A stretch of DNA of 64,000 nucleotides from Nitrospirota bacterium (GCA_035516965.1 DATIZR010000093.1:43255-107254), one strand, 5' to 3'; positions 13,427-45,009 are shown, counted from the stretch's first letter. Numbers and translations are program-made. The notes: generated from the letters alone by a model not told the origin.

Positions 13427-13448
13427 GTAAGTTTGGTAAAATTGCGCT

Positions 13449-18447: not shown

Positions 18448-18623
18448 GGACTGTCGATTATCGCCCAGCAAGGCACCGCTTATGACGACGCTTCATTGCA
18501 GATTGATCCGCAATACTTCAGCTGCGTTCATAAAAAAACCTAAAGTTTTCAGCCCGAATGCCGATACGCTAAATAGGAGCAGAAGTGAGAAACTAATACG
18601 CATGACAAAACCCGGGCGTTAAA

Positions 18624-19829: not shown

Positions 19830-20420
19830 TGGGCGCTGCGTCTGCTATGTGTAGCATAAAAACCTACTCCTCACATCGTGATCTGCGAATCTTAGTGTCA
19901 TTGTCCTTGCAGCTTAAGCCTTTCTGACTCAAAACATCACAGTACGTCACAACACAAGTTCTCGCGCAAAGCCGCCAAGGTCACAAAAAAACGGTTTTTT
20001 GATCCAATCGTTGTTCCGGCTTGCTCAGGTCAGTTCTAGTCGTTTATCGAGTCGACATGATACTGTTTACCGTAAGCTTATTTTAGCAAATTGAGAGTGC
20101 CAATATATTGTCAGCTCTTTCCGTTTTCTAGTAACCCTACCACATTTACCTAAGGCATATACAACATATTATTCCATATTTACAATTAGTTATAATCTAG
20201 GTTCCATATAACAAGTCTATTGTTATGTGGTATTAATGTTGCATCTAAGCATGATGACAGTATTATTTTGTTCCGGTTTTTGACAGATTCACTCATCTGA
20301 AATGCCTATCAAGTAGAAGCAAGAACGATCCTGAATCCAGAGATTTTCTTGAGATACAGAATGCGGGCGACGTTGACGTTCAATAATATCAGTCAGAATA
20401 TGGAAAAGTTGATGTAAAAA

Positions 20421-21227
20421 ATGAAAGAAAAAGTGGACAAATACCCAGTACGTCGCCATGACAAGCTGGTTAATTTTATCATTTGTGGTACGCAGAAGGG
20501 CGGTACTACTGCGTTGGATGAATATCTACGAGAGCACCCCGAGATATGCATGGCCGAAAAGAAAGAGGTACACTTTTTCGATCGTGAAAATTTTTTTCGT
20601 GATATGACGCCTGACTATGCCTGGTATCACTCCTCGTTCACCCCTCGAACGACGCATAAGGTGCTCGGAGAGGCAACGCCGATATATATGTATTGGAACG
20701 GCGCACCACGGCGGATCTGGGAATATAACCCTGCAATGAAGCTGATCGTCGTATTGCGAAATCCCATCGACAGGGCCTATTCTCACTGGAACATGGAGCG
20801 TTCCAGAAATGCCGATACGTTATCATTCTGGGATGCTATCCAAAAAGAATCGGAGAGATGTCGAGAAGCATTGCCATATCAACACAGGATCTATAGCTAT
20901 GTTGATAGAGGCTTCTATTTGGGGCAGCTGCGAAGACTTTGGCTGTACTTTAAAAAAGATCATGTCTTGATCCTGAAAAACGAGTATCTGAGGAATCGGC
21001 CGTATGAGGCACTTCGGGAGGTCTGCGATTTTCTTGAGGTCGCCTGTTTTGACCGGATCGCTATCAAGAACGTTCATTCGCGGCCTTATGAATCGACCAT
21101 GAGCACAAGAGAACGACATTTCCTGCAGAATATCTATGAGCATGAGATCCTCAGTATTGAGCGGGTTCTTGGATGGGATTGCAGCGACTGGCTCACCGCG
21201 GAATGCGGTACGGGAGAGAGCACATGA
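20421..21227 (+). CDS. sulfotransferase family protein (PAPS-dependent)
   Basis: 5-prime-PSB motif IICGTQKGGTTAL and 3-prime-PB motif VVLRNPIDRAYSHW. Confidence 0.8.
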   Translation: MKEKVDKYPVRRHDKLVNFIICGTQKGGTTALDEYLREHPEICMAEKKEVHFFDRENFFRDMTPDYAWYHSSFTPRTTHKVLGEATPIYMYWNGAPRRIWEYNPAMKLIVVLRNPIDRAYSHWNMERSRNADTLSFWDAIQKESERCREALPYQHRIYSYVDRGFYLGQLRRLWLYFKKDHVLILKNEYLRNRPYEALREVCDFLEVACFDRIAIKNVHSRPYESTMSTRERHFLQNIYEHEILSIERVLGWDCSDWLTAECGTGEST

Positions 21228-22081
21228 CATCAGGTCCGGCAGCTGAACTCGTCGAAAAAATACGGGACAAACAGTGCGTCTTCACCATTACCGCCGGACG
21301 TACCGGAACAAACTATCTTCAAAAACTATTCGCTCTCTTCCCTGATACGCTCAGTGTGCATGAAGGAGCGCCGGATTTCGTTCATGTATTAAGAAGAGCG
21401 CAGCAGAACCCTGAAGTTGCCTACAGCTTCTGCCTGCAGCATAAGCTGCCGTTCATCGCCGCTATCGATCAAAAAAGATACGTCGAAACCAGCCACCTGT
21501 TCTGTAAAGGCTTCGTCGAGTCGTTCCTGAAGTGCGGCGTTGTACCGCATATTATAATACTCAGAAGACCTCCTCGGGAGATTGCAGTGAGCAATCTTGG
21601 GCTGAGCACGGTCCCGTCACGCACCGTCCATGGATTAATGTATCTGCTGTCACCGGACGATCCGAATGTATTGCCGCTGCCTCAATGGCAATACCTGAAC
21701 GATTATCAACTATGCTTTTGGTACAGCCTGGAGATCGAAAGGAGGCAAAGAAATTATGCTGATATGTTCAGGCAGCTCGGCGCACGTGTCGTCGAGACGT
21801 CACTTTCCGAACTGCTTGATTTCAGCGCCTTCGTACTCGTTGCATCACAGCTGGGTTTCGAGGCTGACATTCATGATAGAAGCTTGAATGACAATTTTCT
21901 GGAACTCTCTGCCGTGAAACACAACGAAAAACAAAAAAATCCCATAACAGCGACGCCCGAGGAGTTTACGGCTGCCGAAGAAGAGGTCTGGGAAAAGATC
22001 TATTATTACGATCCCTTGCTAAGGGATAGAATTACACAGCAATATGAAAAACCGGTGGTAGGCAAAATGGCGGTTTACTAG
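21224..22081 (+). CDS. sulfotransferase-like P-loop protein
   Basis: TAGRTGTNYL P-loop-like PAPS-binding motif. 4-nt overlap (ATGA) with the upstream sulfotransferase. ORF track start at 21173 is an upstream extension. Confidence 0.55.
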   Translation: MTSGPAAELVEKIRDKQCVFTITAGRTGTNYLQKLFALFPDTLSVHEGAPDFVHVLRRAQQNPEVAYSFCLQHKLPFIAAIDQKRYVETSHLFCKGFVESFLKCGVVPHIIILRRPPREIAVSNLGLSTVPSRTVHGLMYLLSPDDPNVLPLPQWQYLNDYQLCFWYSLEIERRQRNYADMFRQLGARVVETSLSELLDFSAFVLVASQLGFEADIHDRSLNDNFLELSAVKHNEKQKNPITATPEEFTAAEEEVWEKIYYYDPLLRDRITQQYEKPVVGKMAVY

Positions 22082-22141
22082 CGCAGTTGCACCGTCTTTT
22101 CTGGTTTATAGCCGAAATTTAAGGTCAAACAACGTGCTCGT

Positions 22142-24901
22142 ATGATCCTTTCTCACAAATATAAGTTCATCTTTATTAAGACAAAGAAGACTGCGGGGAC
22201 AAGCATTGAGATCGCCCTCTCAAAGTTTTGTGGTCCCACTGACATCATTACTCCCATTACACCAGCTGATGAAACCATCAGAGCACGTCTCGGTTACAGG
22301 GGACCTCAGAATTACTCGTCATCTCTGGGACCGTTCTATAACCATATCTCGGCCAGGGAAATTGCAGAAAAAATAGATCCCGCCGTTTGGGAAACCTATT
22401 ATAAATTTTGTGTTGAGCGTAACCCATGGGACAAGGTCGTTTCGTGGTACTACTGGGAAAATAGGACAGAGCCGCGCCCCCCTCTATCCCAATTTATTCG
22501 TTCCGGACGGGCGGCTCTGGTTGGCGGACCTGGAGGCTTTAACCTGTATACAATCAATGACCGTATCGTTGTCGACAAGGTATTACTGTATGAAAATCTT
22601 CAACAGGAAATGGAAGCTCTTGCACTACGATTAAACTTGCCTGAAGTGCCTCAGTTACCGAATGCAAAAGCAGAGTTCAGGGTCGACAAGAAACCTGTTA
22701 CCGCATTCTATGGCGAGCAGGATCGGAACACAATTGCAACAATATTTTCCCGTGAAATTTCGCTTTTTGGATACGCATTCCCCCGGAAGAACGGCGAGGA
22801 GACTGCAGCTCAGCCGGTTGATTCGCGAAAAGGAATATTTTCTTTGGGAAAGAAAGGTCTTGATGAAAACGCTCTAGGGCACAATAGAGGATATCGCGGC
22901 GCCCCGGGTCAGCTCGATATGATCATTCACGAAGCTGACACGCTAAGCCAGGCGGGCGAAATAGACAAGGCGATCAAACTGCTCGCCGATTGGTTGTCGA
23001 AGGAGCCGCACACCACGGAGATCATTTATGTCATGACAGAGATTTTGCTGCGGGCCAAACATTGTAAAGAATCCCTTGAGGCGCTGAGCGCCCTTCCTGA
23101 TACCGAACGAAACACTACCAGGTTCCTCCTGCTGTCGGGCTATAGTAGGGAGGGATTGGGTGAATATTCAGAAGCAGAACGGCTGTTGAATATTGTACTG
23201 GCCAAGGAACCGCGTAATTCGGTCGCATTGAATCTGGCAGGTATCTTGGCCTATAGGGAAAATAAAAAGGATCTGGCAAACGGTTTCTTTCGTAAAGCAA
23301 TGGAAAGCGATCCGGACTATGGCGAACCATATACGAATCTTGGTGTTCTCGCGTGGGCATCAGGTGACAGGCCGGCAGGAATGGAACTACTGGAACGCGG
23401 CATGGCTCTTTGCCCCACCTCGCCGGACGCCGCGTCCTCCTATCATTCTGCGGCAGTAGCGTTATCCTCCTTCGCCCGCGCGGAGCAGGTATTTCGCAAG
23501 GCACTGACCTTGTTTCCCCTCAACAAGGCAATTGCGTTCTTTCTCATTGACCTCCTCATTCAACAGAGCAAATGGGAGCAGGCAATGCCGATCATCGAAC
23601 AGGCTATGGTCGATCATGGTATCGATGATGGCATCCTTGCTGCTGCCATCGAGGTCCGCAGAAGGACCGGACCGCAGGACTCGGTGCGCACGCACGATAA
23701 GAACAGTTCTCTGTCGCTCTGCATGATCGTAAAGAACGAGGAAAAGAATCTTGCCCGGTGCCTCATGAGCGTCAAACCTGTCGTCGACGAGATGATCGTG
23801 GTTGATACCGGTTCGAGTGACAAAACCCGCGACATCGCAACCGCGTTTGGCGCGAAACTGTACGATGTCCCCTGGACCGGCGATTTTTCCGAAGTGAGAA
23901 ACGCCTCCATCGCCAGGGCCTCGGGAGACTGGATCCTGATTCTGGATGGTGATGAGGTTATATCCCCCCGTGACCACCCGGAACTGATGCGATTGACCGA
24001 CACGACAGGTCGACCAGTATCCTATTCGTTTGTGACCAGGAACTATATTCCGCAGATCCACAAAACAGGCTGGACAGCCAATGACGGAACCTGCGGGGAG
24101 GAAGCGGGCGCTGGATGGCTTGGGAGTTCCAAAGTCCGGTTATTCCCTCGAGATGGCCGCATACAGTTCGTCAATCCTGTACATGAACTGGTGGAACCGT
24201 CACTCGGCAGGGCCGGTATTGGCATACAAAAATGCAGCATCCCGATCCATCATTATGGAAAGCTGGATCAGGAAAAGGTCAACGCCAAATGGGAGGAATA
24301 CTATATTCTTGGTAAAAGGAAGCTTGAGGCCGCCGGGGAAAATGCGGATGCCCTCAGGGAGTTGGCCATCCAGGCCGGAGAGCTAAAACGTTTTGGGGAG
24401 GCGGTAGATCTCTGGAAACGGGCCATCAAATTGCAGCCTCGAATGGAAAGCGCATACCTCAACCTGGCATCCGTCTATCTGCAGCAGGATAAGTTCAATA
24501 CCGCCCTCGCGGTCGCTGAAAAAGCGCTGGAAATAAATCCTGACTCAAAGGAAGTGCTCTGCAACTACGCGCTTTGCGAACTGTATTCAGGCAGCATAGA
24601 GCGTGCGAAAACGGTCCTCGGGGGAGTTCTGAGCAAGACTCCGGGATACCCGGCTGCTGACATCATGTTGGCAATAGCTCACCTCGTCTCAGGCAACAAG
24701 AATGAAGGGATCGCCGTATTCAACGGTCTCGGCATCTCAGGTCCTGCGCTTGTCGAATGCGTTTTGCCTTTTGCAGAAAAATTGCTGCGTGCCGGACGAA
24801 AAGGACCTGCGCATATATTGACCGAGATTGCACGCGAAGTTGAAAGCGCTATTGATGTGGATCTTGAAAGAATACACCTCGGAACATTCTCAAATACATG
24901 A
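22142..24901 (+). CDS. multidomain fusion protein: Sulfotransfer_2-like N-terminus - TPR repeats - family 2 glycosyltransferase - TPR repeats
   Basis: FIFIKTKKTAGTS (Sulfotransfer_2 start motif). TPR units. GT2 core LSLCMIVKNEEKNLARCL...VVDTGSSDKTRDIA...DGDEVI. C-terminal TPRs. Confidence 0.7.
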   Translation: MILSHKYKFIFIKTKKTAGTSIEIALSKFCGPTDIITPITPADETIRARLGYRGPQNYSSSLGPFYNHISAREIAEKIDPAVWETYYKFCVERNPWDKVVSWYYWENRTEPRPPLSQFIRSGRAALVGGPGGFNLYTINDRIVVDKVLLYENLQQEMEALALRLNLPEVPQLPNAKAEFRVDKKPVTAFYGEQDRNTIATIFSREISLFGYAFPRKNGEETAAQPVDSRKGIFSLGKKGLDENALGHNRGYRGAPGQLDMIIHEADTLSQAGEIDKAIKLLADWLSKEPHTTEIIYVMTEILLRAKHCKESLEALSALPDTERNTTRFLLLSGYSREGLGEYSEAERLLNIVLAKEPRNSVALNLAGILAYRENKKDLANGFFRKAMESDPDYGEPYTNLGVLAWASGDRPAGMELLERGMALCPTSPDAASSYHSAAVALSSFARAEQVFRKALTLFPLNKAIAFFLIDLLIQQSKWEQAMPIIEQAMVDHGIDDGILAAAIEVRRRTGPQDSVRTHDKNSSLSLCMIVKNEEKNLARCLMSVKPVVDEMIVVDTGSSDKTRDIATAFGAKLYDVPWTGDFSEVRNASIARASGDWILILDGDEVISPRDHPELMRLTDTTGRPVSYSFVTRNYIPQIHKTGWTANDGTCGEEAGAGWLGSSKVRLFPRDGRIQFVNPVHELVEPSLGRAGIGIQKCSIPIHHYGKLDQEKVNAKWEEYYILGKRKLEAAGENADALRELAIQAGELKRFGEAVDLWKRAIKLQPRMESAYLNLASVYLQQDKFNTALAVAEKALEINPDSKEVLCNYALCELYSGSIERAKTVLGGVLSKTPGYPAADIMLAIAHLVSGNKNEGIAVFNGLGISGPALVECVLPFAEKLLRAGRKGPAHILTEIAREVESAIDVDLERIHLGTFSNT

Positions 24902-24911
24902 GGCATGAGCT

Positions 24912-27900
24912 ATGACCATACATGACAGAAAAGACGATCGAATCAACGTGCCTGTCTGCATCGCGGGAATGCACCGTTCCGGGACTTCCATGGTGGCAAA
25001 ACTGCTTCATCAATCCGGGCTGTATCTGGGAAAGGATGATGAACTTCTTGGACCGGCGTCGGATAACCCCGATGGCTTCTGGGAAAATATTCAGTTCGTC
25101 AGGATAAATGACGAGCTCCTTTTGAAAGCGGGAGGAGCGTGGGATCTTCCGCCGGACATGCGAAATGGATGGGGAAATATTCCAGGCCTTGGATCTCTGA
25201 GGGAAAAGGCGCAAAAAACAGTTCATCAATTTGAAATGCATGGGCCCTGGGGATGGAAGGATCCGCGTAACAGTCTCACGGCGGAATTTTGGCAGGACAT
25301 AATCGGAAAAGAGCATTTACGCTTTGTCATTTGCGTAAGAAACCCGCTTGAGGTTGCGCGTTCGATCCACAAGCGCAGCTACAATTCGTTCATCTTCGGT
25401 CTTAATCTGTGGCATCAGTATAACCGCGCGGTAATGGACCTGACCAGCCCTTCGCAAAGGATGATCACCCATTACGACTCCTTTTTTTCGGATCCGGAAG
25501 AAGAATTGAACAGGCTGCTGGTATTTGCCGGGATCCCTGCAATGCAGTCGGCTGTTCGCAGCGCGTGTTCCCACATCTCCACCTCTCTTCGCCATCATTC
25601 CTCCAGCGGGCACGATCTCATCAAGGCAGGCGCATCGGCAAAACTTGTTGATCTCTACGAGGAGCTTTGCGCGCAGTCAGGTCCCGTGTATCAGAGGACC
25701 TGCAGCTCCGCGGTTTCAAAAACTGCGCCCCCCCCGGAAAGAACTATTTCTAACTTTCCCGGCAAGAAGGGTTTCATTTCAATCGTTATCCTCACCTTCA
25801 ATCAGCTTACCTATACAAGAGAGTGTGTTGAGAGCATCAGAAAGCACACGTCCGAACCCCATGAGATCATTTTTGTAGATAACGGGTCAACAGACGGAAC
25901 GGTGAAATGGCTGAAAGAGCTCATTAAAAAAAATGATAATTATGCACTGATTGAGAATACGACCAATCTCGGCTTTTCCAAGGGGTGTAACCAAGGCATC
26001 AAGGAATCTTCAGGCGAATACATCCTGCTCCTCAATAACGATGTCGTAGTTACCGAAGACTGGCTTTCCGGCATGCTGGAATGCCTGAACAACGCTCCCG
26101 ACGTCGGCATCGTGGGCCCCATGACGAACAGCATCAGCGGACCGCAGATGGTCGCGCATGTTGACTATTCCTCTCCGGACCAACTCGCGGCGTACGCAAG
26201 GAAGTTCAGGGATGAACACCGGCATCGCCGTATCCCGCTGCGAAGGATCGTCGGTTTCTGCATGCTCTTCAGGCGCGATCTTGTGGAAAGAATCGGATCA
26301 CTTGACGAAAGCTTTGGAACGGGCAATTACGAGGACGACGATTTCTGCCTGAGATCGGCATTGGCCGGCTGCCGGAATTTCATTGCCGGCGATGTGTTTA
26401 TCCACCATCACGGCAGCAGAAGCTTCGTCGGCAACAATATTCATTACGGGTCGGCCATGTCGGGCAACAGGAAGATCTATAATTCCAAGTGGGGCGCGGT
26501 CAGGGCCGATACGACGCCGGGGAAAAATCTCCTTGTGATCCAGGCCCTCGGAAAGGCCGATGAACTCCATCGCAAAGACCAGTCGGACACGGCGCTGACG
26601 GTCCTCATTGACGCGTTAAAGTACGCGCCCGACGACGGAAGGATCTACTCGCACCTTACAAACATCCTGCTTGAGATAAAGCAGTACGAACAGGCACTTG
26701 ACGTGATCGATCGCGCGCCTCATCATGACACCGACGCGCACTGGCTCTGCTTGGCGGGATATTGCAGGGAAGGACTCGCATCCTATGAAGAAGCTGCAGA
26801 GCTTGCTGCCCGCGCCCTCGCACTCCGGCCTGGTTATGCATCGGCATTGAACCTTCAGGGTGTGATCGCATTTAGAAACGAAGCGCGGGCTTCGGCAGAA
26901 CCGTTCTTCCGCCAGGCTATGGCAGCCGATCCCGGCTACGGAGAACCTTATACGAACCTTGGTGTCCTGCTCTGGTCCCAGGGAGATCAGCAGGCCGGCC
27001 TCAACCTGCTTGAGCGAGGGTTCATCCTTGCTCCTGTTTCGCCGGATGCGTCAACGCTTTATCATTCTGCTGCAACGGCATCAGGAGCGTTTAACGACGC
27101 CGAGAGGAACTTTCGAGAAGCCTGTTCGCTCTATCCGGACCTCCGGAGGACCTGTTTCCTTCTTATCGATCTTCTCCTGAAGCAGGACAAATACCGGGAA
27201 GCGCTGGCACTGACCCATGACGCAATGATAGCATTCGGCATCGACGACGGCATCCTGTCCGCAGCTCTTGACATCATATCAAAACTCGGGTCACCGGATG
27301 CCCTGCGTGCAAAAAAAGGTTCCGATACTCTTACGGTATGCATGATCGTCAAGAATGAAGAAGCTCATCTGCTGAAATGCCTTATGAGCATTGAGTCCCT
27401 GGCGGATGAGATCATTGTCGTCGATACCGGGTCAACAGACAGAACGAAGGGCCTTGCCCGGTCCTTTGGCGCAAAGGTCTTTGACGTTCCCTGGACCGGT
27501 GATTTTTCCGAGGCGCGAAATGTGTCCCTCGACAAGGCATCAGGAGGCTGGATTTTTGTTCTCGATGCCGATGAGGTGATATCGCCCAAAGACCATGATG
27601 CGATCAGAAAACTCATCAGCTCAACGAAAAAAGCTCCAGCTGCCTATGCTGTGACGACCCGTAATTATATTTCGGCGATGAATATCACGGGCTGGACAAT
27701 GAACAAAGGGGAATATCCGGCCGAGGAAACGGGCAGCGGCTGGAAACCGAGCACCAAGACCAGGCTTTTTACGAACGATCCGCGTATCCGTTTCGAGAAT
27801 CGCGTTCATGAGCTCGTCGAATCGTCTCTTGCAAAGATCGGGATCACTTCGAAGCCCTGCGATATTCCCGTCCATCATTATGGAAAGCTCAAGGAAGAAA

Positions 27901-28538
27901 CGGTGATGAAAAAAGGAGAGGATTATTTCCTTCTGGGGAGGGAAAAGCTCAAAGAAACGAGTGATCCTCAAGCCCTCTACGAACTCGCAGTTCAGGCGGG
28001 CGAGCTTGACCGGTTTGATGACGCCATTGAGCTGTGGGAACAATTTCTGGGCATGCGGGACGTTCCCCCTGAGCTTTTCCTGCGAGCACACATCAATCTG
28101 GGGTATGCTTTCGTTCAACGAGGGCGATACGATGATGCGTTTTCCATATCCAAAAAGGCGATAGCGCTTGCGCCGGATGCCCCGGGTGCTATCATGAACT
28201 ATTCGCTGGCGGAGCTTTGGCGGGGAGACCCGCAAAACGCCGTTCCGCTTCTTGAGGATCTTCTCAAATCCACACCGGATCATCCTCCCGCAATAGGAAT
28301 GCTTGCAATAGCCTCGCTCATAGCAGGGCAGGCCGATTCTGCACGGCGTTCCTTTGACCAATTACGAACCCAGGGCTTTCTTCATGAGCTTTATCTGCTG
28401 CATCATGTACAGAAGCTTACGGAAGCAGGGAGGACCGACCGCGCCATCGTGATGCTGGAGAACACCGCTGCTGCCGGCTTAGGAACGGCAAAACTGAATA
28501 CCGTGCTGGAGGAATGCCGGAGACGTTCTATGAACTGA
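24912..28538 (+). CDS. multidomain fusion protein: sulfotransferase - GT2 - TPR - second GT2 - TPR (1208 aa)
   Basis: IAGMHRSGTSMV P-loop sulfotransferase motif. GT2 #1 ISIVILTFNQ...FVDNGSTDGT...LLNNDV. TPRs. GT2 #2 LTVCMIVKNEE...VVDTGSTDRTKGLA...LDADEVI, paralogous to the GT2 of the upstream gene. TPRs. Confidence 0.7.
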   Translation: MTIHDRKDDRINVPVCIAGMHRSGTSMVAKLLHQSGLYLGKDDELLGPASDNPDGFWENIQFVRINDELLLKAGGAWDLPPDMRNGWGNIPGLGSLREKAQKTVHQFEMHGPWGWKDPRNSLTAEFWQDIIGKEHLRFVICVRNPLEVARSIHKRSYNSFIFGLNLWHQYNRAVMDLTSPSQRMITHYDSFFSDPEEELNRLLVFAGIPAMQSAVRSACSHISTSLRHHSSSGHDLIKAGASAKLVDLYEELCAQSGPVYQRTCSSAVSKTAPPPERTISNFPGKKGFISIVILTFNQLTYTRECVESIRKHTSEPHEIIFVDNGSTDGTVKWLKELIKKNDNYALIENTTNLGFSKGCNQGIKESSGEYILLLNNDVVVTEDWLSGMLECLNNAPDVGIVGPMTNSISGPQMVAHVDYSSPDQLAAYARKFRDEHRHRRIPLRRIVGFCMLFRRDLVERIGSLDESFGTGNYEDDDFCLRSALAGCRNFIAGDVFIHHHGSRSFVGNNIHYGSAMSGNRKIYNSKWGAVRADTTPGKNLLVIQALGKADELHRKDQSDTALTVLIDALKYAPDDGRIYSHLTNILLEIKQYEQALDVIDRAPHHDTDAHWLCLAGYCREGLASYEEAAELAARALALRPGYASALNLQGVIAFRNEARASAEPFFRQAMAADPGYGEPYTNLGVLLWSQGDQQAGLNLLERGFILAPVSPDASTLYHSAATASGAFNDAERNFREACSLYPDLRRTCFLLIDLLLKQDKYREALALTHDAMIAFGIDDGILSAALDIISKLGSPDALRAKKGSDTLTVCMIVKNEEAHLLKCLMSIESLADEIIVVDTGSTDRTKGLARSFGAKVFDVPWTGDFSEARNVSLDKASGGWIFVLDADEVISPKDHDAIRKLISSTKKAPAAYAVTTRNYISAMNITGWTMNKGEYPAEETGSGWKPSTKTRLFTNDPRIRFENRVHELVESSLAKIGITSKPCDIPVHHYGKLKEETVMKKGEDYFLLGREKLKETSDPQALYELAVQAGELDRFDDAIELWEQFLGMRDVPPELFLRAHINLGYAFVQRGRYDDAFSISKKAIALAPDAPGAIMNYSLAELWRGDPQNAVPLLEDLLKSTPDHPPAIGMLAIASLIAGQADSARRSFDQLRTQGFLHELYLLHHVQKLTEAGRTDRAIVMLENTAAAGLGTAKLNTVLEECRRRSMN

Positions 28539-28581
28539 CCTTGGAGGAAGAAGTTCTGGCAAGGTTGATTGTTCACACACT

Positions 28582-31500
28582 ATGTCACAGACCATTAAAA
28601 AATTGCTTTCCAAGGGCCTTTCACTGCACCGCAGCGGTGATTTTGTGCAGGCTGAGCGATCCTATCGCACCGTACTGTCTCAGGACCCTGGCCAGTCGGA
28701 TGCTCTCTACCTCCTCGGTATGATCGCACTGCAGCGTGCCGACAATGTCCGTGCTGTTGAGCTTATTTCGAAAGCACTTGAGCGGCATCGCACCACACCG
28801 GAATATCATGCGAACCTTGCCATAGCCCTTCACAGCCTCGGCAGGCATGAGGAGTCGGTTGTTCATTGCCGTGAAGCGCTTGCTTTTCGCCCGGACCAGT
28901 TTTCTGTCCTTAATACGCTGGGCAATGCTCTTATGGCACTAGAACAGCGTGAGGAGGCTCTTGAGTGCCTGCAGCGGGCAGTCAAGCTTAAACCCGACAG
29001 CCTAGAGATTAATTATAATCTCGCCAATGCGCTCAGAGTTATCGGACGATCTGAAGAGGCGGCAGAACGCTACGGTGTCGTGATAAATCTGAAGCCGGAC
29101 CACGTTGAGGCCATATATAACCTTGCAAATCTTCAGAGAAAGCTGTCTCAGCATGCCAATGCCCGGGACAGTTATCTTTCTGTTCTGGCCCTGAAACCGG
29201 ACCATGCAGATGCAATGTGCGGTCTGGCCGACATGCTCCACAAGTACGAGGAGTACGAAAAGGCGGAGACCTATTACCGATCTGCCCTATCCTTGAAGCC
29301 GGACACTGCCTTGGCATATAACGGACTCGGGAATACCTTGCGCCTGCTTGGGAAACTGGACGAAGCGCTGGACTGCTATCGCCGGGCACTGGAGGTCCAA
29401 CCCCAGGCGGTGGCATACTATTGCAATATCAGCAATGTGCTTTTTGACAGGGGACAGCTCGACGAGGCCGTTGAAAGTTGCGAGAGAGCGCTCACAATAC
29501 GGCCCGACTTTCCGGAGGCTCACTGGAATATGGGACCGGCCCTTGTGGCAAAAGGCGATCTTGACAGAGGGTGGCAGAAATATGAATATCGGTTGTCGAT
29601 AAAGGATGCTCAGACAACCTCATTCACCTATCCTGACTGGGACGGCTCCTCCCTTCAGGGAAAAACACTTCTTGTCTATACCGAGCAGGGCGTAGGCGAT
29701 GAGATAATGTTTGCCTCTTGCCTGCCGGATGTGATCAACGAAGCAGGGAGGTGTATTGTGGAATGCGATGCCCGCCTGGCACCACTTTTCAAGCGGGCAT
29801 TTCCCAGAATATATACGATCCAGCGAGGGAAAGGCGCTGACCACTACCCAAAGGAATTGCCGTTACCAAACTGTAAGGTGGCCATGGGAAGTCTTCCCCG
29901 TTTTTACCGGTCTTCGTTGAAGAGTTTCCCTCACCAACACCATTATCTGACAGCTGATCCTGCGGCAGTAGCACATTGGAAAGATCGGTTCAATTCCCTG
30001 GGTTCAGGGCTAAAGATCGGCATCTCGTGGCGAGGCGGGAAAATAGCCGTCGTACGCCGCACACGCTCGACCAGCCTCGATCAGTGGAAGGATTTATTGT
30101 TGATGAGGGATGCCTGTTTTATCAATCTGCAGTATGGCGACTGTAAAAATGAGATCCAGGACATTCACACAAAGTTGGGCGTAACGATCCATGACTGGGA
30201 TGATTCAGATCCGCTTACCAACCTTGATGATTTTGCGGCTAAAATATCTGCGCTCGATCTGGTCATTTCTGTGGACAACTCGACGGTGCACCTGGCCGGC
30301 GCTCTGGGTGTTCCTGTCTGGACACTCCTCACCTTTGGTTCTGATTGGAGATGGATGAGAGACGTTGAGGATACCCCCTGGTATCATTCCATGCGGCTCT
30401 TGCGACAGCCCGTTGCCGGAGACTGGGGCGCAGTTTTCAGCCGTGTTACTGCCGGTCTTACTCAAGCTCATGCGAATAGAAAGGTGGTAATGACCGTGGA
30501 ACGCTCCTTCAGAAACAGGAGCGGTTACCAGAATAGAAGCTGCGGCAGGGTTGGACTTTTGAACGACACAACGTACTGGTACCATTGGGGATGTACCGGA
30601 ACCAGCAGAGGGATACTCAGGGCGATCGCAGAACGGGGCTACGTGGTCAACAAAATACCGATAACGGGAATAGACCAGTGCACGCACACACCACAGAACA
30701 TACGCGACTTTGATGACCCCGAATTCTTTCGTGCTTTTTCCAAGGCGAACAGCTGGATGATGCGGGAACTCCGGGATGCGGACATTGTCGTGGTCAATGG
30801 AGAAGGGTCGCTGCATGGTATTAATTCATATACGCTAAAGCTTTTGTATCTCATCTATGCCTCAAAGATGCACCTCAAAAAACAGGTTCAGATAATAAAC
30901 CATTCGTGCTATCCCGACGATTCCCTTGAGGTCGTTGACCCGGCAGCCTGGAAGCTTTACAAAAAGGTATACAATGCAATTGATTTTGCGGCTATCCGAG
31001 AGCCGCTCAGCCATGAATTATTGACGCGTAACGGAGTTTCTGCGGAATTGAGCTTTGACTGCCTTCCTCTCTATATTAAGAAAACATATGACCGCTCTGG
31101 TGTTCAGTCGGACGGCTCGATCGTGATTGCCGGCTCGGTAATACTGAACGACTGCCTGCCATCCTTTGCCAAATTTCTCCGGATAATGCATGGCAAGGGG
31201 CATGTCATTAAAGTCCTGATCGGTGCAAATTTGCGTCCGGCACGGGATGATAAGCTTTTTGTTCAGGGGCTTACCGAGGCATGTCCGGATGCATGGTCCC
31301 GCGTTCGAGCTGAATCTCTTGATGCCTGGCTTGATACCATTGCACAGGCATCTGTCCTGGTCTCAGGACGCTTTCATCACACGATCGCGGCATCAATGCT
31401 GGGTACGCCCTGTATCCTGCTCGGGAGCAATACTCCGAAGAATGCGGCGCTTGCCCAGGTGGTCGGAATCGATCCGCCATTATCCTGGGCCGACCCTGCA

Positions 31501-31662
31501 CTTGCGGAAATACTGGTTACGAGAACCGAGGACGCGCTCAAACGGCCTGATCAGTTCAGGACCACCAATGATACCCGTGATCGCATGTGTCAACTCGCTG
31601 AACGGAACTTTATAGGGCTTGAGAAATTTAAGAGGGGATACGATATTCGTGAAGCCCGGTAG
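28582..31662 (+). CDS. multidomain fusion protein: TPR repeats - GT9-like (heptosyltransferase-fold) glycosyltransferase - polysaccharide pyruvyl transferase domain
   Basis: At least 8 TPR units. GT9 motifs [14 protein letters not shown] and [23 protein letters not shown]-terminal [10 protein letters not shown]...[20 protein letters not shown] matches PS_pyruv_trans (CsaB/WcaK) signatures. Confidence 0.65.
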
Positions 31663-33445
31663 AAATGATCCTTGCCCCTGCGGCAGCGGAAAAAAATACA
31701 AGAAGTGCTGCGAAGGCTACGACCGTGTCAAGGATGCTGCAGAAATTCGGCAACAACCTTCCGTGTCAAGCCTCCTTCAGAGGGCAGTTGATTCTCATAA
31801 TGCAGGCAGACTCTCTGAAGCAGAGGCAATTTACCGTGGTATTCTCGAAAAGGTCCCCCGAAATGCTGATGCCCTGCATCTTCTGGGGATGATTGCCCAC
31901 CAAAAAGGAAACAACGCCGAAGCTGAACAGATGATAAGAGCCGCCATATCTTTGGACAGCTCCGTTGCGGCATTCCATGTTAACCTTGGAAAGGTCCTCA
32001 AGAAGACGGACCGGAAACATGAATCTCTTGACTGCTATCGGAAAGCGCTGTTGCTTCAACCAAACATGACTGAAGCCATCTATAATCTGGCCAATGAACT
32101 CTGCGCACGGGGGGAATATGATGAGGCGGTACAGCATTACAGGAATGTCATCAACATTCAGCCCGATCATTCCTATGCGTGCAATAATTTAAGCCTTGCT
32201 CTCAGGAGCATGGGGCAAACAGAGGAAGCCCTGCACTATGTAACACGGGCATTGAACAGAGACCCGGGGAATGTTGAGGCGTATAACAATCTGGGAGTTC
32301 TCCTGTCAAACAAGGGACAGCTTGAGGCATCCATTGACGCTCTCAACAAGGCTATTTCGATCAAGCCCGACTACAAGGACGCGCATTGGAATCTGGCCCT
32401 GCCCTTGCTGCAACTGGGTGACCTCGACACTGGCTGGAAAAAATATGAACTGAGGGACCTCAAGAGGGATGCTTCTGCCAGGAAGTCATTCCCCTATCCA
32501 CGGTGGGACGGATCTTCATTGAACGACAAAACCTTGTTCGTTTATGCCGAGCAGGGAGTTGGTGATGAGATCATGTTCGCTTCAGTGTTGATCGACGTCA
32601 TACCTCGGACTAAACGGTGCATTGTTGAATGCAATGACCGTCTTGTTCCCCTTTTTTCGCGCTCTTTTCCTGAAGCACGGGTGATCCCTATGGTCAAAGG
32701 GGCACTTCCGGAGCTTCTGCATACTATCGACGTGTCGGCACCAATCGGCAGCCTGCCGATGCATCTGCGTCAGGACCTGAGAGGTTTTCCTCGACGGAGA
32801 TCATATCTGGTTGCAGACCCTGATAAGATCTCTGACTGGCAGAACCGCTTTCGGGCCCTCGGGGACGGCCTGAAGGTCGGCATATCGTGGAGAGGTGGCA
32901 GTGAGGCCAGCGTGCGACACTTGCGTTCAACAAAGCTTGACCAATGGACAGAACTTTTTAGAGTACCTGGCGCTCACTTCATTAACCTTCAATATGGTGA
33001 CTGCAGGCTGGAGATCGAAGAAGCAAAAGAACTCCTGGGGACAACTATTTACGATTGGAAAGATGCTGATCCCCTTAAGGATCTCGATAATTTCGCTGCC
33101 CAGATCTCGGCCCTTGATCTGGTCATTACCGTGGATAACTCGACCTTGCATATGGCGGGAGCTCTGGGCGTTCCTACCTGGGCAGTGATCCCTAAAGGAA
33201 ACAACTGGCGATGGCTGCAGGACGTCGAGGATACGCCGTGGTATCCCAGTGTGCGCCTATTCAGCCAGACGAAACTTCATAACTGGACAGACGCATTTTT
33301 ACGCCTAAGGGACTTGCTTCACCGTGCAGCAAGCGGCGGTACAACCATTGAACAGTTGACCAAGTCTGTGGCTGCTTCTTATCAAGATCGTCGGCCAGCT
33401 TTAGAATCAAACGTTGAGAAGACGCATATCAAAATGACCGCCTGA
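31649..33445 (+). CDS. SEC-C motif - TPR repeats - GT9-like glycosyltransferase fusion protein
   Basis: N-terminal [18 protein letters not shown] (SEC-C zinc motif), TPR units, [38 protein letters not shown] at 31649 overlaps the upstream stop (ORF track start ATG 31619 is an alternative). Confidence 0.65.
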
Positions 33446-33475
33446 TGATGTTGGCCTCAAGAGAGGATAGCTGAT

Positions 33476-36346
33476 ATGAGAACAGGAAGAAACGACCCTT
33501 GCCCATGCGGCAGTGGTAAAAAATTCAAAAAATGCTGCGAACCGACGGAAACGTCACCATCCGCGGCAGTCCCAGGCCCGGCTCACTCTTTGGCAGGCAT
33601 GCTCCGGGAAGCCATTGACCATCACCAGACAGGTAGGCTGGGTGATGCAGAAAGGCTCTACCGGTCCATCCTTGAGAAAAGACCGAACGACGCCGACGCA
33701 CTTCATCTCCTCGGCGTGATCTGCCACCAGATCGGCAACCTTGCTGAAGCTGAGACCCTGATCAAAAGAGCGATCGCTGTTGACAACAAGGCCGCGTTAT
33801 TCCATGTGAACCTCGGGAATGTGCTCAAACAACGAGGCAAGCAGGATGAAGCCATGGCCTCGTTCCGCAAGGCTCTCTCGCTTCAGCCTGATCTCGCCGA
33901 AGCGCACTATAACCTGGCAAACGAGCTTTACGCAAACAATGATGTGGAAAAGGCGGTTACCCATTACACAAAGGCTTTGCGGACGAATCCTCAAATGGCA
34001 GAAGCACATTATAACCTCGGCATCGCATTGCAGACGCAGGACAGGATAGAGGAAGCGATATCAAGCTATTCGCGCGCCGTCGCGATCCGGCCCGATCATC
34101 ACAATGCTCACTATAATCTCGGCATTCTCTTCCAGGAGATGGAAAGGTATAAGGATGCCGCAATGCACTATGACCGTGCCTTGAAATACGATCCGGGCAA
34201 TGCGAACGCGCACTATTATCGGGGCAATGCGTATCTGGAGCTCGATCGGTATGACACAGCCGAGGCATCCTTCAGATCTGCAATAGCACTTCGGCCGGAT
34301 TTTGCTGATGCCCACAACGATCTCTCGGTTGCCTTACGAAAACAGGGACGTACGGAAGACGCCCTTGCTTCCGCGCGACGCTCCCTGGAGATCACCCCCG
34401 GCTTTGCGGCCTATAATAATCTGGGCATAACATACCGGGAGGATGGAAGAATTGCAGAAGCTATCGAAAATGCTAAAAGAGCGATCGCACTAAAACCGGA
34501 CTCTCCTGATGTTCAATGGAATCTCGCGCTTGCCCTCCTGCATCATGGTGAACTCGCACCGGGTTGGCAAAGGTACGAATGCCGTGCTTTGAAAACTGAC
34601 TCTAGCCTGAGGGTGTTCCCCTATCCGCGCTGGGCTGGAAGCCCCCTGAAGGACAAGACATTATTTATCTTTGCCGAGCAGGGCATAGGCGATCAGATCA
34701 TGTTCGCATCCCTTTTTCCCGATATCATGCGGCGTGAGCCGAAACACTGCATAGCAGATTGCGACCCGCGGCTGGTGCCGCTCTTTGCCAGATCATTTCC
34801 CGGAGTAGCGGTCATTCCCGCGGCTAGAGAGACCCTGGTGGATAGACTTCCTGCCATTGATCTGGCCATCCCCATGGGCAGCCTTCCGATGCATCTGCGC
34901 CCTGATCTTATAAGCTTTCCGCAGCAACGCTCATTTCTGGTTCCCGATGCCGAAAAGGTCGCACTCTGGAGCAGCCGTTTCAACAGGCTCGGAACGGGGT
35001 TGAAGATTGGAATATCCTGGAGGGGAGGCAAGGATGCCAGCGTCCGCAATCTGCGCTCGACAACGCTTGCGCAGTGGTCCCGTCTTTTCACGGTGCCGGG
35101 TTTACAGTTCGTGAACTTACAATACGGGGACTGCGCTCAAGAGCTTCTGACCGCTAAAAAGGACCTTGGCGTCACGATCCACGATTGGGACGACGCAGAC
35201 CCGCTCAAGGACCTCGACGGCTTCGCGGCACAGATTGCGGCCCTGGACCTTGTGATCTCCGTGGATAACGCCACCGTGCACATGGCCGGAGCGCTTGGTA
35301 TTCCGGCATGGGTATTATTGCCCAGGGGCTGCGACTGGAGATGGATGAAGGACTTTGAAGACAGCCCGTGGTATTCTTCGGTCAGGCTGTTCCGTCAACA
35401 GGCGCACGGAATGTGGGGAGAGGTCTTCGAGCCGGTCGCCGAATCACTGAGAACAATGACTCCCCGGGCGCTGGCCTCAGGGAACAATGACTGTTTTTTA
35501 CCACCGGTCAAGAGGTCCTATCTGTCCGCAACATCATCAGTCGAAACGATGCATTCGAAAACAGCGATCAGCAATCTCAACCTGCGACTTTCTGAGATCA
35601 TGCAGAACAGGATATCGGTAAAAACAGCGGTCGAAGTTAGAGAAATAGATTCACTGTCCGCGACTGAGCAGAGCCTCTTTGACAGGCCTATCTTTATCCT
35701 TGGAGTGCCGCGTTCGGGGACCTCAATGGTTGCAGGCTTATTGCATGAATGCGGTGCATGGGCAGGGAAAACCGTGCTGGGATCACCGGAAAATCCGAAG
35801 GGGTTCTACGAGCATATTGTTCTAAGAGAAACGATGAATAAAAAAATTCTTTCTTCTCTTAACTGCGACCCCTTAGGGGTCAAGGCCCTCCCGGAAATTG
35901 ATCAACTGCCGGATATCCCGGATCTGGGCAATATCGTAAAGCAGGTTATTCAAGCTGAGGGCTACACTGAAGACAGGCCGTGGCTATTTAAAGATCCCAA
36001 GTTGTCCCTTATATGGCCTATATTGAGAGCGGCTTTTCCCTCCGCGCGTTGGATAATCGTGAGAAGAAAGAATGAGGATATTATCAGGTCATGCTTGAAC
36101 ACTCATTTTATGGTCCGTCATTCGACTGATCCGTTGTTCTGGCGCTCCTGGATCGATGAGTACCTCGATAGACTGGATAGGTTGAAAGGATCCGGCGTAT
36201 GGTGGAGAGAAGTATGGCCGCATGAGCTTGCCTCAGGAGACTTCGGCGTCCTGCATCAACTGATCAACGAACTTGATCTGAACTGGAACGAACAAATCGT
36301 CGAGGAATTTATTCTGCCGGGCTCATGGCATGCTTCAACAACATGA
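33476..36346 (+). CDS. SEC-C motif - TPR repeats - GT9-like glycosyltransferase - C-terminal sulfotransferase fusion protein
   Basis: [21 protein letters not shown] units, FAEQGIGDQIMFAS, ISVDNATVHMAGALGIPAWVLL, then PIFILGVPRSGTSMVAGLL P-loop sulfotransferase domain. Confidence 0.65.
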   Translation: MRTGRNDPCPCGSGKKFKKCCEPTETSPSAAVPGPAHSLAGMLREAIDHHQTGRLGDAERLYRSILEKRPNDADALHLLGVICHQIGNLAEAETLIKRAIAVDNKAALFHVNLGNVLKQRGKQDEAMASFRKALSLQPDLAEAHYNLANELYANNDVEKAVTHYTKALRTNPQMAEAHYNLGIALQTQDRIEEAISSYSRAVAIRPDHHNAHYNLGILFQEMERYKDAAMHYDRALKYDPGNANAHYYRGNAYLELDRYDTAEASFRSAIALRPDFADAHNDLSVALRKQGRTEDALASARRSLEITPGFAAYNNLGITYREDGRIAEAIENAKRAIALKPDSPDVQWNLALALLHHGELAPGWQRYECRALKTDSSLRVFPYPRWAGSPLKDKTLFIFAEQGIGDQIMFASLFPDIMRREPKHCIADCDPRLVPLFARSFPGVAVIPAARETLVDRLPAIDLAIPMGSLPMHLRPDLISFPQQRSFLVPDAEKVALWSSRFNRLGTGLKIGISWRGGKDASVRNLRSTTLAQWSRLFTVPGLQFVNLQYGDCAQELLTAKKDLGVTIHDWDDADPLKDLDGFAAQIAALDLVISVDNATVHMAGALGIPAWVLLPRGCDWRWMKDFEDSPWYSSVRLFRQQAHGMWGEVFEPVAESLRTMTPRALASGNNDCFLPPVKRSYLSATSSVETMHSKTAISNLNLRLSEIMQNRISVKTAVEVREIDSLSATEQSLFDRPIFILGVPRSGTSMVAGLLHECGAWAGKTVLGSPENPKGFYEHIVLRETMNKKILSSLNCDPLGVKALPEIDQLPDIPDLGNIVKQVIQAEGYTEDRPWLFKDPKLSLIWPILRAAFPSARWIIVRRKNEDIIRSCLNTHFMVRHSTDPLFWRSWIDEYLDRLDRLKGSGVWWREVWPHELASGDFGVLHQLINELDLNWNEQIVEEFILPGSWHASTT

Positions 36347-36398: not shown

Positions 36399-36782
36399 TC
36401 AGATAGCAGCGGGTGAGCCTCTGAGACCAGCCGCAATATTGATGTTGATGTTGATAATGGCCGCAAGCTTTTCCGGAACGGGCTGCGCCATGACCTCGAG
36501 AATGCGTTTGTCGATGAAGAGACTGAGCGACAGGATGTCCTCCCGGATCTTTCTGGGCATCGCGTTGTCCGAACCGGCAAGCTCGCTCTGGAATATGCTC
36601 CAGATTCGCTGGTTATACCGGAGCGCCTCGTCGAGACGTGCATCCCGGTCGGTTGCATCCCAGTTATTCTGCACATTCTGCAGCATGAGGGCGGCTTTCG
36701 TCAATACCGACGCCTCCAGCTCACGACCTGACTGAGTTGTCTTTTGGACCGTCCGGTATGCTTCCAGTTGATTTGCGAGCAT
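36399..36782 (-). CDS. flaF: flagellar biosynthesis regulator FlaF
   Basis: LEAYRTVQKTTQSGRELEASVLTKAALML...RYNQRIWSIF matches the FlaF family pattern known from Caulobacter-type flagellin regulation. Overlaps flbT by 62 nt. Confidence 0.6.
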   Translation of the reverse strand: MLANQLEAYRTVQKTTQSGRELEASVLTKAALMLQNVQNNWDATDRDARLDEALRYNQRIWSIFQSELAGSDNAMPRKIREDILSLSLFIDKRILEVMAQPVPEKLAAIINININIAAGLRGSPAAI

Positions 36783-37161
36783 TGTTCAAGACCTCCTGTT
36801 CATATTCTATCAGTTTCTGCGTCAGCTTCAGCGCCTGGTAGTAACGGCTGCTCAGGATGTTTGCGCTGATCTGGTCTATCATGCCCAGCGTGCTGGGCGC
36901 CGCGGTCACAACATCCCGCACGAGCTTCCAGTAGCTGTTGTGGTGCACAACAAGGTTTTTCTCGTCCACATACATGAGCTGGACGGTGAAGTAGATGCGC
37001 TTGCAGGGCGTGTCCGCGTCCTGTTCGCGGAGAATGTCCTTGTCCCTCAGTATCGGAACATTGTTCTCGACCATCAGGTCGCACCGGCTTCCGCCGTTCT
37101 GGACGACCGCTCCGCCGATGATCAGACGTTCATGGGGTTTTAAATTGATTTTCAGGGCCAT
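36721..37161 (-). CDS. flbT: flagellar biosynthesis repressor FlbT
   Basis: MALKINLKPHERLIIGGAVVQNGGSRCDLMVENNVPILRDKDIL...ADTPCKRIYFTVQLMYVD is closely similar to the FlbT family N-terminus (MALKxxLKPGERIxxGxxVIxNG...VPILRxKDIM...ADTPxKRIYxxVQLMYID). Confidence 0.75.
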   Translation of the reverse strand: MALKINLKPHERLIIGGAVVQNGGSRCDLMVENNVPILRDKDILREQDADTPCKRIYFTVQLMYVDEKNLVVHHNSYWKLVRDVVTAAPSTLGMIDQISANILSSRYYQALKLTQKLIEYEQEVLNNARKSTGSIPDGPKDNSVRS

Positions 37162-37198: not shown

Positions 37199-37681
37199 TT
37201 ATATTTTTACATTCACGATAGTTCCATGCTGCACGTGGTCCGCTGTCTGCGCTCGCTTCGGACTGATCGTTTCCTTATATTGCTTGAGGTCCGCGAGGGC
37301 GGCCGAAACTTCCCTGTCCGTGGACTTATCCGTCAGTTTGTTCGCCGTCAGTTTTTCTTTTAATTCAGGTGGGAGGGAAGACTTCCCTATCTCTTCCTGA
37401 ACTCCCTTGATCCCCTTGATCAGATCGAGTCTCTGAGGACTTCCCAGAGGGAAGAACGGTGGAAAACTGAACATGATCGTTTTCAGCTGATCTTTAATGT
37501 AGTTGGTATTCGTCAAACTGGTCATTACCTGCGGCTCACGGATACCGGAGCTGCCTGTTGCTGATGAATTGAAGGTCTCCGATGATCTGGTCTGTGTTGA
37601 AACAGGTGAATTGCCCTTTCTCGCAGACAGTTGAGAACCATCCGCCTGGCTTGCCAGCATGTTAATGCCATTGATATCCAT
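37199..37681 (-). CDS. hypothetical protein (flagellin-locus associated, possibly FlaG-like)
   Basis: 160-aa ORF with low-complexity polar N-terminus and a conserved-looking C-terminal half. Sits between flagellin and flbT on the same strand. No confident family assignment. Confidence 0.4.
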   Translation of the reverse strand: MDINGINMLASQADGSQLSARKGNSPVSTQTRSSETFNSSATGSSGIREPQVMTSLTNTNYIKDQLKTIMFSFPPFFPLGSPQRLDLIKGIKGVQEEIGKSSLPPELKEKLTANKLTDKSTDREVSAALADLKQYKETISPKRAQTADHVQHGTIVNVKI

Positions 37682-37751: not shown

Positions 37752-38582
37752 CTAGGCAAACAGCCTCAGTACTGATTGCGCTGCCTGCGAAGAGAGGCTC
37801 AGTGCCGTTGTGCCCAGAGACTGCCTGGTCTGCAGCATCAGCATGTTCGCACCTTCTTCGTTCATGTCAGCGAGCGTCAAGCTGTCAGAGCCCGCGGTGA
37901 GGGTATTCACCATTTGGGTCGTGAAGTCCTGGCGTGCCTGAATGATGCTGAGACCGGCCGAAAGTGCACCAGAGGTCGTTCTCAGCGTGGTCTTCGCCGT
38001 ATTGAGCGCGGTTATGGTAGTATTGATGTCCGAAACACTCGAAGAGCTGGTTATGCCCACCGTACCGGTGTCGATCCCGAGGTCAGCCGATTTTGATGCA
38101 ATGGATTTAACGGTGAGCGATGAGGTATTGTCCTCGTTAAAGTTCACGACGAGATCGCTCGAACCATTCAGCAGGTTTACGCCCTGATAATTGGCGTCGG
38201 TGACAACCGTATCCAGCTGGGCCATGAGGGTCGAATACTGCATCCCGATGACCGACAGTGCCGTAGTATCCGTCGTGGAAAGTGCTTGCTGGGCAAGACC
38301 TTTGGCAGCATCGATAAGCGTGCTGATCGTCGTGATACCGTTGTTTGCGACCTGGATCGCCTGGATACCCTGGCCCATGCCGTCCTTCAGAGCGGACAGG
38401 TCCGCTGCGCGGCCGTTCAGGGCCTGTGCTGCAAAGAATGAAACGGGGTTATCCAGCGCGCTGTTGACCTTCTTGCCCGAGGACAAACGTTCCTGTGTCC
38501 TGTTGAGAAGATCGACGGTGCTCTGAAGGCTGACGAGGTTGCTGCGCATTCCTGAGGTTAAGGTGATGTCATTGATAGCCAT
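37752..38582 (-). CDS. fliC: flagellin (short, 276 aa, Caulobacter-type)
   Basis: Flagellin N-domain (RLSSGKKVNSALDNPVSFFAAQ...IQVANNGITT) and C-domain (ANMLMLQTRQSLGTTALSLSSQAAQSVLRLF). AAGGAGA RBS. Perfect sigma28 promoter upstream. Confidence 0.8.
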   Translation of the reverse strand: MAINDITLTSGMRSNLVSLQSTVDLLNRTQERLSSGKKVNSALDNPVSFFAAQALNGRAADLSALKDGMGQGIQAIQVANNGITTISTLIDAAKGLAQQALSTTDTTALSVIGMQYSTLMAQLDTVVTDANYQGVNLLNGSSDLVVNFNEDNTSSLTVKSIASKSADLGIDTGTVGITSSSSVSDINTTITALNTAKTTLRTTSGALSAGLSIIQARQDFTTQMVNTLTAGSDSLTLADMNEEGANMLMLQTRQSLGTTALSLSSQAAQSVLRLFA

Positions 38583-42706: not shown

Positions 42707-42836
42707 GGAGCGAAGGATGCGATAAGCCGCCGGTTTCCGGGTCGGGCACAGAATGACGGGTCGGGGTACAAGTCGTACGAACCATGACGTGGTGCATATT
42801 CTCAACGGTAACGCTTGAGAACCGCGGATACACGCT

Positions 42837-45006: not shown

Positions 45007-45009
45007 GCC

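Follow-up and report, generated by a model that had tools for sequence, protein, structure and literature searches.

How cytoplasmic O-glycosyltransferases find flagellin between its synthesis and its type III export is, to our knowledge, not understood; enzymes of the FlmG type recognise flagellin through their tetratricopeptide repeats (TPRs), and we know of no account of where or when they meet this substrate. The question is raised by a 64,000-nucleotide stretch of DNA from a Nitrospirota bacterium (GCA_035516965.1 DATIZR010000093.1:43255-107254; hereafter the window), in which two tandem genes, open reading frame (ORF) A and ORF B, encode TPR proteins with a glycosyltransferase domain and begin with a SEC-C motif, the SecA-type metal-binding domain (MBD). 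We tentatively propose, by analogy with known systems and at a little under an even chance, that this MBD is a portable module through which FlmG-like modifiers of flagellin, or of its glycan, would dock on the ribosome and/or a SecB-type chaperone.

Both genes lie on the + strand and are separated by 30 nucleotides. ORF A (31649..33445) encodes 598 amino acids comprising an MBD, a linker, about seven TPRs and a GT9-like domain of the GT-B fold, and ORF B (33476..36346) encodes 956 amino acids comprising an MBD, a linker, about ten TPRs, a GT9-like domain and a sulfotransferase. A preliminary description of this DNA had already recognised the two reading frames, and their coordinates hold except that the start of ORF A moves from TTG 31619 to GTG 31649: we rejected the TTG codon on the evidence of homologue N-termini, of the ribosome-binding site (RBS) and of a JGI gene call (P0001; 598 amino acids, protein identical to ORF A) that also begins at GTG 31649. 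As read from the sequence, the RBS of ORF A is AAGAGGGGA (31630..31638, + strand), 10 nucleotides before the GTG, and that of ORF B is AGAGAGGA (33460..33467, + strand), 8 nucleotides before the ATG. The start of ORF A shares 14 nucleotides with the stop end of a third, upstream paralogue, ORF C. The tandem paralogy of ORF A and ORF B, also proposed earlier, is borne out by BLASTP (E = 0, 44% identity over a gapped alignment); the gaps arise because the two proteins differ in their number of TPRs.

The N-termini of both proteins contain CPCGSGKK[YF]KKCC, a CXCX8CC pattern of predicted metal ligands (C9, C11, C20 and C21 in ORF A), together with the conserved serine after the second cysteine and the aromatic residue of an MBD (criteria for ligands, serine and aromatic residue taken from bioRxiv 10.1101/613315). 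That a SEC-C motif opens both reading frames was likewise suggested in the preliminary description, and scanning the first 40-41 residues with PF02810 (SEC-C) confirmed it: the MBD of ORF A (31658..31711, + strand) scored 44.4 bits (E 1.5e-11) and that of ORF B (33485..33538, + strand) 45.6 bits (E 6e-12), against a gathering score of 20.4. Among structures in the PDB, the zinc domain of Escherichia coli SecA (1sx0, E 1.1e-7; 1tm6) is identical to the window MBD at 17 of 19 residues, and further matches were found to the Haemophilus influenzae SecA peptide in its complex with SecB (1ozb) and to the C-terminal knuckle of YchJ (9l6b). A six-frame regular-expression scan revealed no genuine SEC-C motif in the 64-kb window beyond those of ORF A and ORF B. 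We also compared 21 N-terminal MBDs (3 of them not on TPR enzymes) with 37 SecA C-termini collected in the same scans. The two consensus sequences are the same, non-ligand surface positions included, which is what a shared binding partner predicts. Judged by sequence, both proteins carry, at their true N-terminus, a genuine MBD of the canonical SecA type.

Is the motif translated, and has selection acted on it? All MBD-bearing homologues start with M-K-x-G-R-N, exactly 8 residues ahead of the first cysteine at residue 9. Comparison of ORF A with ORF B over the 18 motif codons gave 8 synonymous differences and 1 conservative non-synonymous one, and codon differences among 13 homologous genes were 549 synonymous versus 255 non-synonymous. 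The motif codes for protein and is subject to purifying selection. The preliminary description had noted that a later translation start would remove the motif from the protein; this objection fails in the face of the conservation of residue 9, the synonymous excess and the position of ATG 33476, the earliest start codon in the frame of ORF B past the upstream stop. Two public gene calls do clip the motif. One is the ENA call P0024, which starts ORF B at Met42, a start that we rejected on the grounds of conservation and of the pattern of synonymous and non-synonymous differences; the other is P0032 in locus L008, where an in-frame SEC-C motif at 2044-2082 lies ahead of the called start at 2182. 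Gene callers thus sometimes clip the MBD, so that its frequency at N-termini in databases is underestimated. The same two calls are what can be said for the view that the motif is an artefact lying before the real start codon, or else a functionless neutral relic. We find this view, already disfavoured, scarcely credible: the spacing of M-K-x-G-R-N is constant in every MBD-bearing homologue, an RBS precedes the starts of both genes, synonymous changes far exceed non-synonymous ones, and the MBD is kept in 10 of the 12 members of the subclade described below, with full-length proteins ~40-76% identical to ORF A.

Behind the MBD of ORF A follow a linker (residues 22-38; 31712..31762, + strand) whose sequence and length vary among homologues, a TPR superhelix (residues 39-271; 31763..32461, + strand) and the GT9-like GT-B catalytic domain (32462..33403, + strand). 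An AlphaFold2 (AF2) model of ORF A, built from a 45-sequence alignment, was confident as a whole (mean per-residue confidence, pLDDT, 91.5; predicted template-modelling score, pTM, 0.85), with three low-confidence parts: the MBD (pLDDT 54-71), residues 25-33 of the linker (below 50) and the C-terminal tail. The low pLDDT of MBD and linker in an otherwise confident model suggests that the knuckle is unpacked and sits on a disordered tether, ~17-26 residues long. MBD linkers are rich in serine, threonine and proline, and their sequences are unconserved among homologues.

The catalytic domain was assigned by structure. Scores against PF01075 (GT9) were 16.7 bits for ORF A and 14.2 bits for ORF B (domain at 34559..35515, + strand, delimited by alignment), below the cut-off of 22, and ORF C, at 23.3 bits, is the only paralogue above it. 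A PDB sequence search with the catalytic domain returned no meaningful match, and the domain was placed by fold comparison alone, the closest solved fold being a GT9 structure (PDB 3tov). The whole ORF A model was most like SPINDLY and OGT, O-glycosyltransferases that combine TPRs with a GT-B domain (Foldseek E 1e-18 to 1e-13). Glyco_transf_41 (PF13844) had no match on the catalytic regions of ORF A, B and C at E up to 0.1, and NCBIfam models gave only sub-threshold TPR matches on these three proteins. The C-terminal sulfotransferase that the preliminary description had assigned to ORF B is recovered as a Sulfotransfer_3 match (residues 738-900; 35687..36175, + strand; E 4e-9 to 4e-10).

What might these enzymes modify? 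ORF C, ORF A and ORF B close a tightly packed same-strand run that extends from 17.7 to 36.3 kb, and ORF B converges, across a 52-nucleotide gap, on flaF (36399..36782, - strand; PF07309, E 3.5e-33). Next on that strand come flbT (36721..37161; PF07378, E 9e-44) and a flagellin gene (37752..38582; Flagellin_N, E 2.8e-16, with matches to NCBIfam flagellin subfamilies), whose 276-amino-acid product has a Ser/Thr-rich central region. As in the window, an MBD gene adjoins flaF-flbT-flagellin in the contig of P0034 and in L002; an MBD gene adjoins flaF in L006, and tandem pairs of MBD genes also occur in L004, L005 and L008. A distant MBD-bearing member in L148 lies directly upstream of fliC-flaG-fliD, another type of flagellin locus. 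Of the 38 family loci that span 10 kb or more, 11 contain a gene for flagellin, FlaF or FlbT. The connection to flagellin that had been suggested for the pair is borne out at the level of gene linkage, in the window and in related contigs.

The TPR-GT9-like family to which ORF A and ORF B belong is large (2,822 matches among 8,000 candidates scored) and often massively paralogous; the closest named homologue, at 76% identity, comes from a metagenome-assembled genome of Thermodesulfovibrionales. An N-terminal MBD was found in 9 of the best 120 matches, in 3 of 100 5'-complete ORFs recovered by scanning metagenomes with the catalytic domain alone, and in 20 of 288 distinct catalytic domains. A neighbour-joining tree of these 288 domains groups ORF A and ORF B within a single compact subclade, 10 of whose 12 members carry an MBD; ORF C, a 40% identical paralogue, lies outside it. 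The C-terminal add-on varies across this MBD-rich subclade (none, sulfotransferase, methyltransferase, GT2 or pyruvyl transferase), and the MBD has been retained through both gene duplication and these C-terminal swaps. Other MBD-bearing members are scattered on the tree, and at least 10 state changes are needed. The simplest history is a single MBD acquisition before the duplication of ORF A and ORF B, followed by retention, with several independent gains elsewhere. Family architecture varies in other ways: P0260 (1347 amino acids) and P0379 (1102 amino acids) each have one N-terminal MBD followed by two complete TPR-GT9-like modules in the same polypeptide, and in L130 (1-16241) seven TPR-GT9-like genes in tandem, an extreme expansion of the family and all without an MBD, follow a flagellin gene.

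The MBD-linker-TPR head is also found on enzymes of other types and in other phyla. We searched 1.84 billion representative proteins exhaustively and filtered the best 150 matches, which were dominated by multi-TPR giants, for an MBD by regular expression. Among these 150 matches, 18 further clusters at 50% identity open with an MBD followed by TPRs. The 15 that we checked end in a GT41 domain (five clusters), a GT9-like domain (four), an S-adenosylmethionine (SAM) methyltransferase (three), or a GT2-like domain, a GT4 domain or a sulfotransferase (one each); the sulfotransferase was assigned by sequence similarity to L009, which, like L012, is a locus encoding an MBD-TPR-sulfotransferase protein in a Gallionellaceae reference genome. 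Glyco_transf_41 was matched by proteins of L011 and by the representatives P0242, P0309, P0311, P0329 and P0343, all of which have the MBD-TPR head. At L011 (8059-15742; Moraxellaceae bacterium AER2_44_116), four tandem MBD-TPR-GT41 paralogues of ~625 amino acids each neighbour rpoN, rapZ and darP. This locus is non-flagellar, and the presence of the same head there argues for a generic partner. Two other searches were less productive: a contig scan with the full-length alignment found the GT9-like domain in none of 80 loci, the matching pattern being the SEC-C stretch, mostly in SecA C-termini, though it did bring to light MBD-TPR proteins with a GT41 domain or a sulfotransferase, and a protein search with the N-terminal 110 residues returned chiefly short contig-end fragments and YchJ proteins. 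The recurrence of the head on many enzyme types shows that the architecture is modular and not a one-off. The preliminary description had called an MBD unusual on glycosyltransferases; this holds within the GT9-like family, given the frequencies above, but needs qualifying for the head as such, which is reused on other enzymes.

How might the MBD contribute to flagellin modification? In the mechanism that we propose, ORF A and ORF B would be cytoplasmic protein modifiers of the FlmG/OGT type. The TPR superhelix would hold a protein substrate, most likely the neighbouring flagellin, the GT9-like GT-B domain would transfer a sugar, and the fused sulfotransferase of ORF B would then decorate it. 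On its disordered tether, the MBD would present the same partner surface as in SecA, YecA/AscA and YchJ-C domains, putatively to the ribosome and, where one exists, to an acidic chaperone of the SecB type. Docked in this way, the enzyme would be concentrated at the place where flagellin chains are being made or have yet to fold, and the Ser/Thr sites of the subunit could be modified ahead of its capture for type III export. Three points from the literature bear on this proposal. The MBD of SecA and of AscA/YecA mediates binding to SecB and to the 70S ribosome, and MBDs have been described as an 'evolutionary toolkit' found on proteins of at least 18 functions, methionine aminopeptidases included (bioRxiv 10.1101/613315; 10.1101/2020.07.21.215244). 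In FlmG, the TPR half binds flagellin, and glycosylation is cytoplasmic (PMC7591256). Tethering to the ribosome or to an export chaperone, as the preliminary description had suggested, would accord with what is published on MBDs.

Several observations weigh against this proposal. Flagellin is not a Sec substrate, and the presumption that it is the most likely acceptor is based on gene neighbourhood only. The MBD is missing from about 93-97% of the GT9-like family and from ORF C, a paralogue encoded in the same operon, and Caulobacter FlmG, as described, has none either. The absence of the MBD from most family members and from ORF C indicates that it is accessory, and that neither catalysis nor flagellin recognition requires it. 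Moreover, the affinity of an MBD protein for the ribosome is only micromolar (bioRxiv 10.1101/613315; 10.1101/2020.07.21.215244), and domains like SEC-C can have other functions, as in YchJ, whose C-terminal cysteines and lysines serve redox-triggered dimerisation and DNA binding (PMC13377102).

Other partners for the MBD can be envisaged. It might bind not the ribosome but solely an export chaperone of the SecB type or another acidic chaperone, putatively FliS or FlaF with its flagellin, in which case the enzyme would act after translation, on unfolded flagellin held by the chaperone. The SecA peptide in the crystal structure with SecB (1ozb) has almost the same sequence as the window MBD, and the AscA MBD binds SecB with a dissociation constant of ~150 nM, tighter than its binding to the ribosome (bioRxiv 10.1101/613315; 10.1101/2020.07.21.215244). 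Moreover, the adjacently encoded FlaF has been described as a flagellin-binding secretion factor (PMC7591256), and Rv0613c/MSMEG_1285, a mycobacterial protein with both SEC-C and TPRs, binds an exported protein that has no leader (PMC6032435). Such a hand-off to the exclusion of the ribosome nevertheless seems unlikely to us, as the same head occurs in the non-flagellar locus L011. That locus also tells against a third possibility, in which the MBD would attach to anionic phospholipids or to part of the export gate (FlhA, FliJ) and so gather the enzymes at the basal body or the cell pole. In its favour, the MBD has a strongly basic character (KK-KK), the C-terminus of SecA is reported to contribute to lipid binding, and the genes lie within a large flagellar region with fliI, fliF, fliK and motAB. 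However, neither sequence nor context indicates a gate component, the MBD-TPR head sits on enzymes of the non-flagellar Moraxellaceae locus, and the non-ligand residues equal the SecA consensus, which fits a universal rather than a flagellum-specific partner. We therefore regard localisation to the membrane or gate as very unlikely, and the tethering to the flagellar export gate that the preliminary description had suggested finds no support, the generic partner suggested by L011 arguing against it.

The MBD might instead work within the protein: folded back with its linker, it could occupy the TPR groove and inhibit the enzyme or pose as a substrate, or it could be a metal (Zn/Fe) or redox switch of enzyme activity. 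SecA is autoinhibited by its MBD-bearing tail as long as neither SecB nor the ribosome is bound, and MBDs carry iron in vivo (bioRxiv 10.1101/613315); the C-terminal cysteines of YchJ sense reactive oxygen species (PMC13377102), and the Ser/Thr/Pro-rich linkers could mimic an acceptor peptide. We consider such regulation quite unlikely: the AF2 model shows no confident docking of MBD or linker on the TPRs, the linker sequences are unconserved, and a purely intramolecular role would leave the conserved SecA-type surface residues unexplained. Docking on the ribosome and/or a SecB-type chaperone accordingly stays our preferred, tentative reading.

This proposal may be taken further. One could suppose that the MBD-linker-TPR enzymes (GT9-like, GT41, GT2, GT4, methyltransferases and sulfotransferases) form a class that is tethered to the ribosome and acts co-translationally, an extension that we regard as rather unlikely. 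If it were true, cytoplasmic O-glycosylation and sulfation of flagellin would, in flagellar loci, start on the nascent chain, and a bacterial counterpart of co-translational modification, so far undescribed, would come into view. The MBD-TPR enzymes hint at such a broader class of ribosome-tethered modification enzymes. The presence of an MBD on a subset of enzymes also offers a simple experimental handle on the place and time of cytoplasmic flagellin modification, and the proposal of a portable MBD toolkit would extend from Sec accessory factors to enzymes of post-translational modification.

The pair lies in a large flagellar region. ORF C (28582..31662, + strand) encodes 1026 amino acids with TPRs, a GT9-like domain and a polysaccharide pyruvyl transferase, without an MBD. 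Upstream of it (17707..28538, + strand) are genes for an adenosine 5'-phosphosulfate (APS) kinase, a TPR protein, two sulfotransferases and two large sulfotransferase/GT2/TPR fusions. The whole run (17707-36346, + strand) appears to be an 18.6-kb operon with the APS kinase, at least five sulfotransferase domains, several GT2 domains, three TPR-GT9-like enzymes and the pyruvyl transferase, adjoining the flagellin gene. Its content of sulfotransferases and pyruvyl transferase predicts a sulfated, pyruvylated flagellin glycan. No synthase gene for pseudaminic acid (Pse) or legionaminic acid (Leg), the sugar donors looked for by comparison with FlmG-class enzymes, was found among the window ORFs scanned, which were part of those in the window, and such genes may be located elsewhere in the genome. 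Between flbT and the flagellin gene lies an unannotated ORF of 160 amino acids (37199..37681, - strand) with no Pfam or NCBIfam match. In related contigs the same slot holds a gene for 267-270 amino acids, also without a Pfam match, and no similarity between the two was detected.

The rest of the window contains fliK, two motAB pairs, fliI, fliF and sigma-54 activators. The two motA-motB pairs (41936-46658, + strand) have a hybrid histidine kinase gene between them; fliI lies at 53740-55059, fliF at 56844-58376 and a sigma-54 activator gene at 59880-61211. On the other side of the operon, positions 12001-14000 have a GC content of 36% within a background of 50-60%, which may point to recent acquisition; this low-GC stretch includes, just upstream of a PAS histidine kinase gene, a gene for a flavin amine oxidase (12008-13426). 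Beside the flagellar region, a cluster at 6680-11558 (+ strand) encodes a methyltransferase, a short-chain dehydrogenase and two beta-ketoacyl synthases. This cluster could make an acyl substituent, proximity being its sole link to the flagellin genes.

How do ORF A and ORF B compare with known systems? The MBDs of SecA, YecA/AscA and YchJ have the same ~20-residue CXCX8C[CH] knuckle and the same serine, aromatic and basic residues as those of ORF A and ORF B, and in the SecA tail the MBD is likewise carried on a flexible tether. Position and context differ: the MBD of SecA is C-terminal while ORF A and ORF B have theirs at the very start of the protein, and the known MBDs are found on a translocase ATPase (SecA), a UPF0149 chaperone (YecA) and an NTF2-like domain (YchJ), whereas those of ORF A and ORF B are attached to TPRs plus a glycosyltransferase. 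The closest precedent is Rv0613c/MSMEG_1285 of mycobacteria, which combines SEC-C with a TPR region, binds the leaderless, Sec-independent HBHA and is needed for its correct surface display (PMC6032435). Compared by description, this protein differs from ORF A and ORF B in having no glycosyltransferase domain, in its domain order and in its phylum.

Among glycosyltransferases, FlmG of Caulobacter and Brevundimonas is closest in layout, with N-terminal TPRs and a C-terminal GT-B domain in 596 amino acids (598 in ORF A), a likeness of description and not of sequence. FlmG and, by prediction, ORF A and ORF B are cytoplasmic, and all are linked to flagellin genes in genomes that use flaF/flbT (PMC7591256; bioRxiv 10.1101/2022.03.25.485807). 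Unlike FlmG, for which no MBD is described, ORF A and ORF B belong to an operon rich in sulfotransferases and GT2 domains and with a pyruvyl transferase. The resemblance of ORF A to OGT and SPINDLY (GT41) is one of architecture only, the catalytic domain having no Glyco_transf_41 match. From the GT9 heptosyltransferases (WaaC/WaaF type; 3tov), ORF A and ORF B differ in scoring below the Pfam cut-off and in being fused to TPRs; an ADP-heptose donor or an acceptor in the lipopolysaccharide core would mark a GT9 enzyme, and the context here is flagellar, with no lipid A-core context. The TibC/Aah family, which heptosylates proteins, is related to the GT9 heptosyltransferases. In the literature we found no description of SEC-C combined with a TPR glycosyltransferase or with flagellin modification. 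The components themselves, a SecA-type MBD, protein glycosyltransferases guided by TPRs and flagellin glycosylation islands, are already known; what appears new in ORF A and ORF B is their combination.

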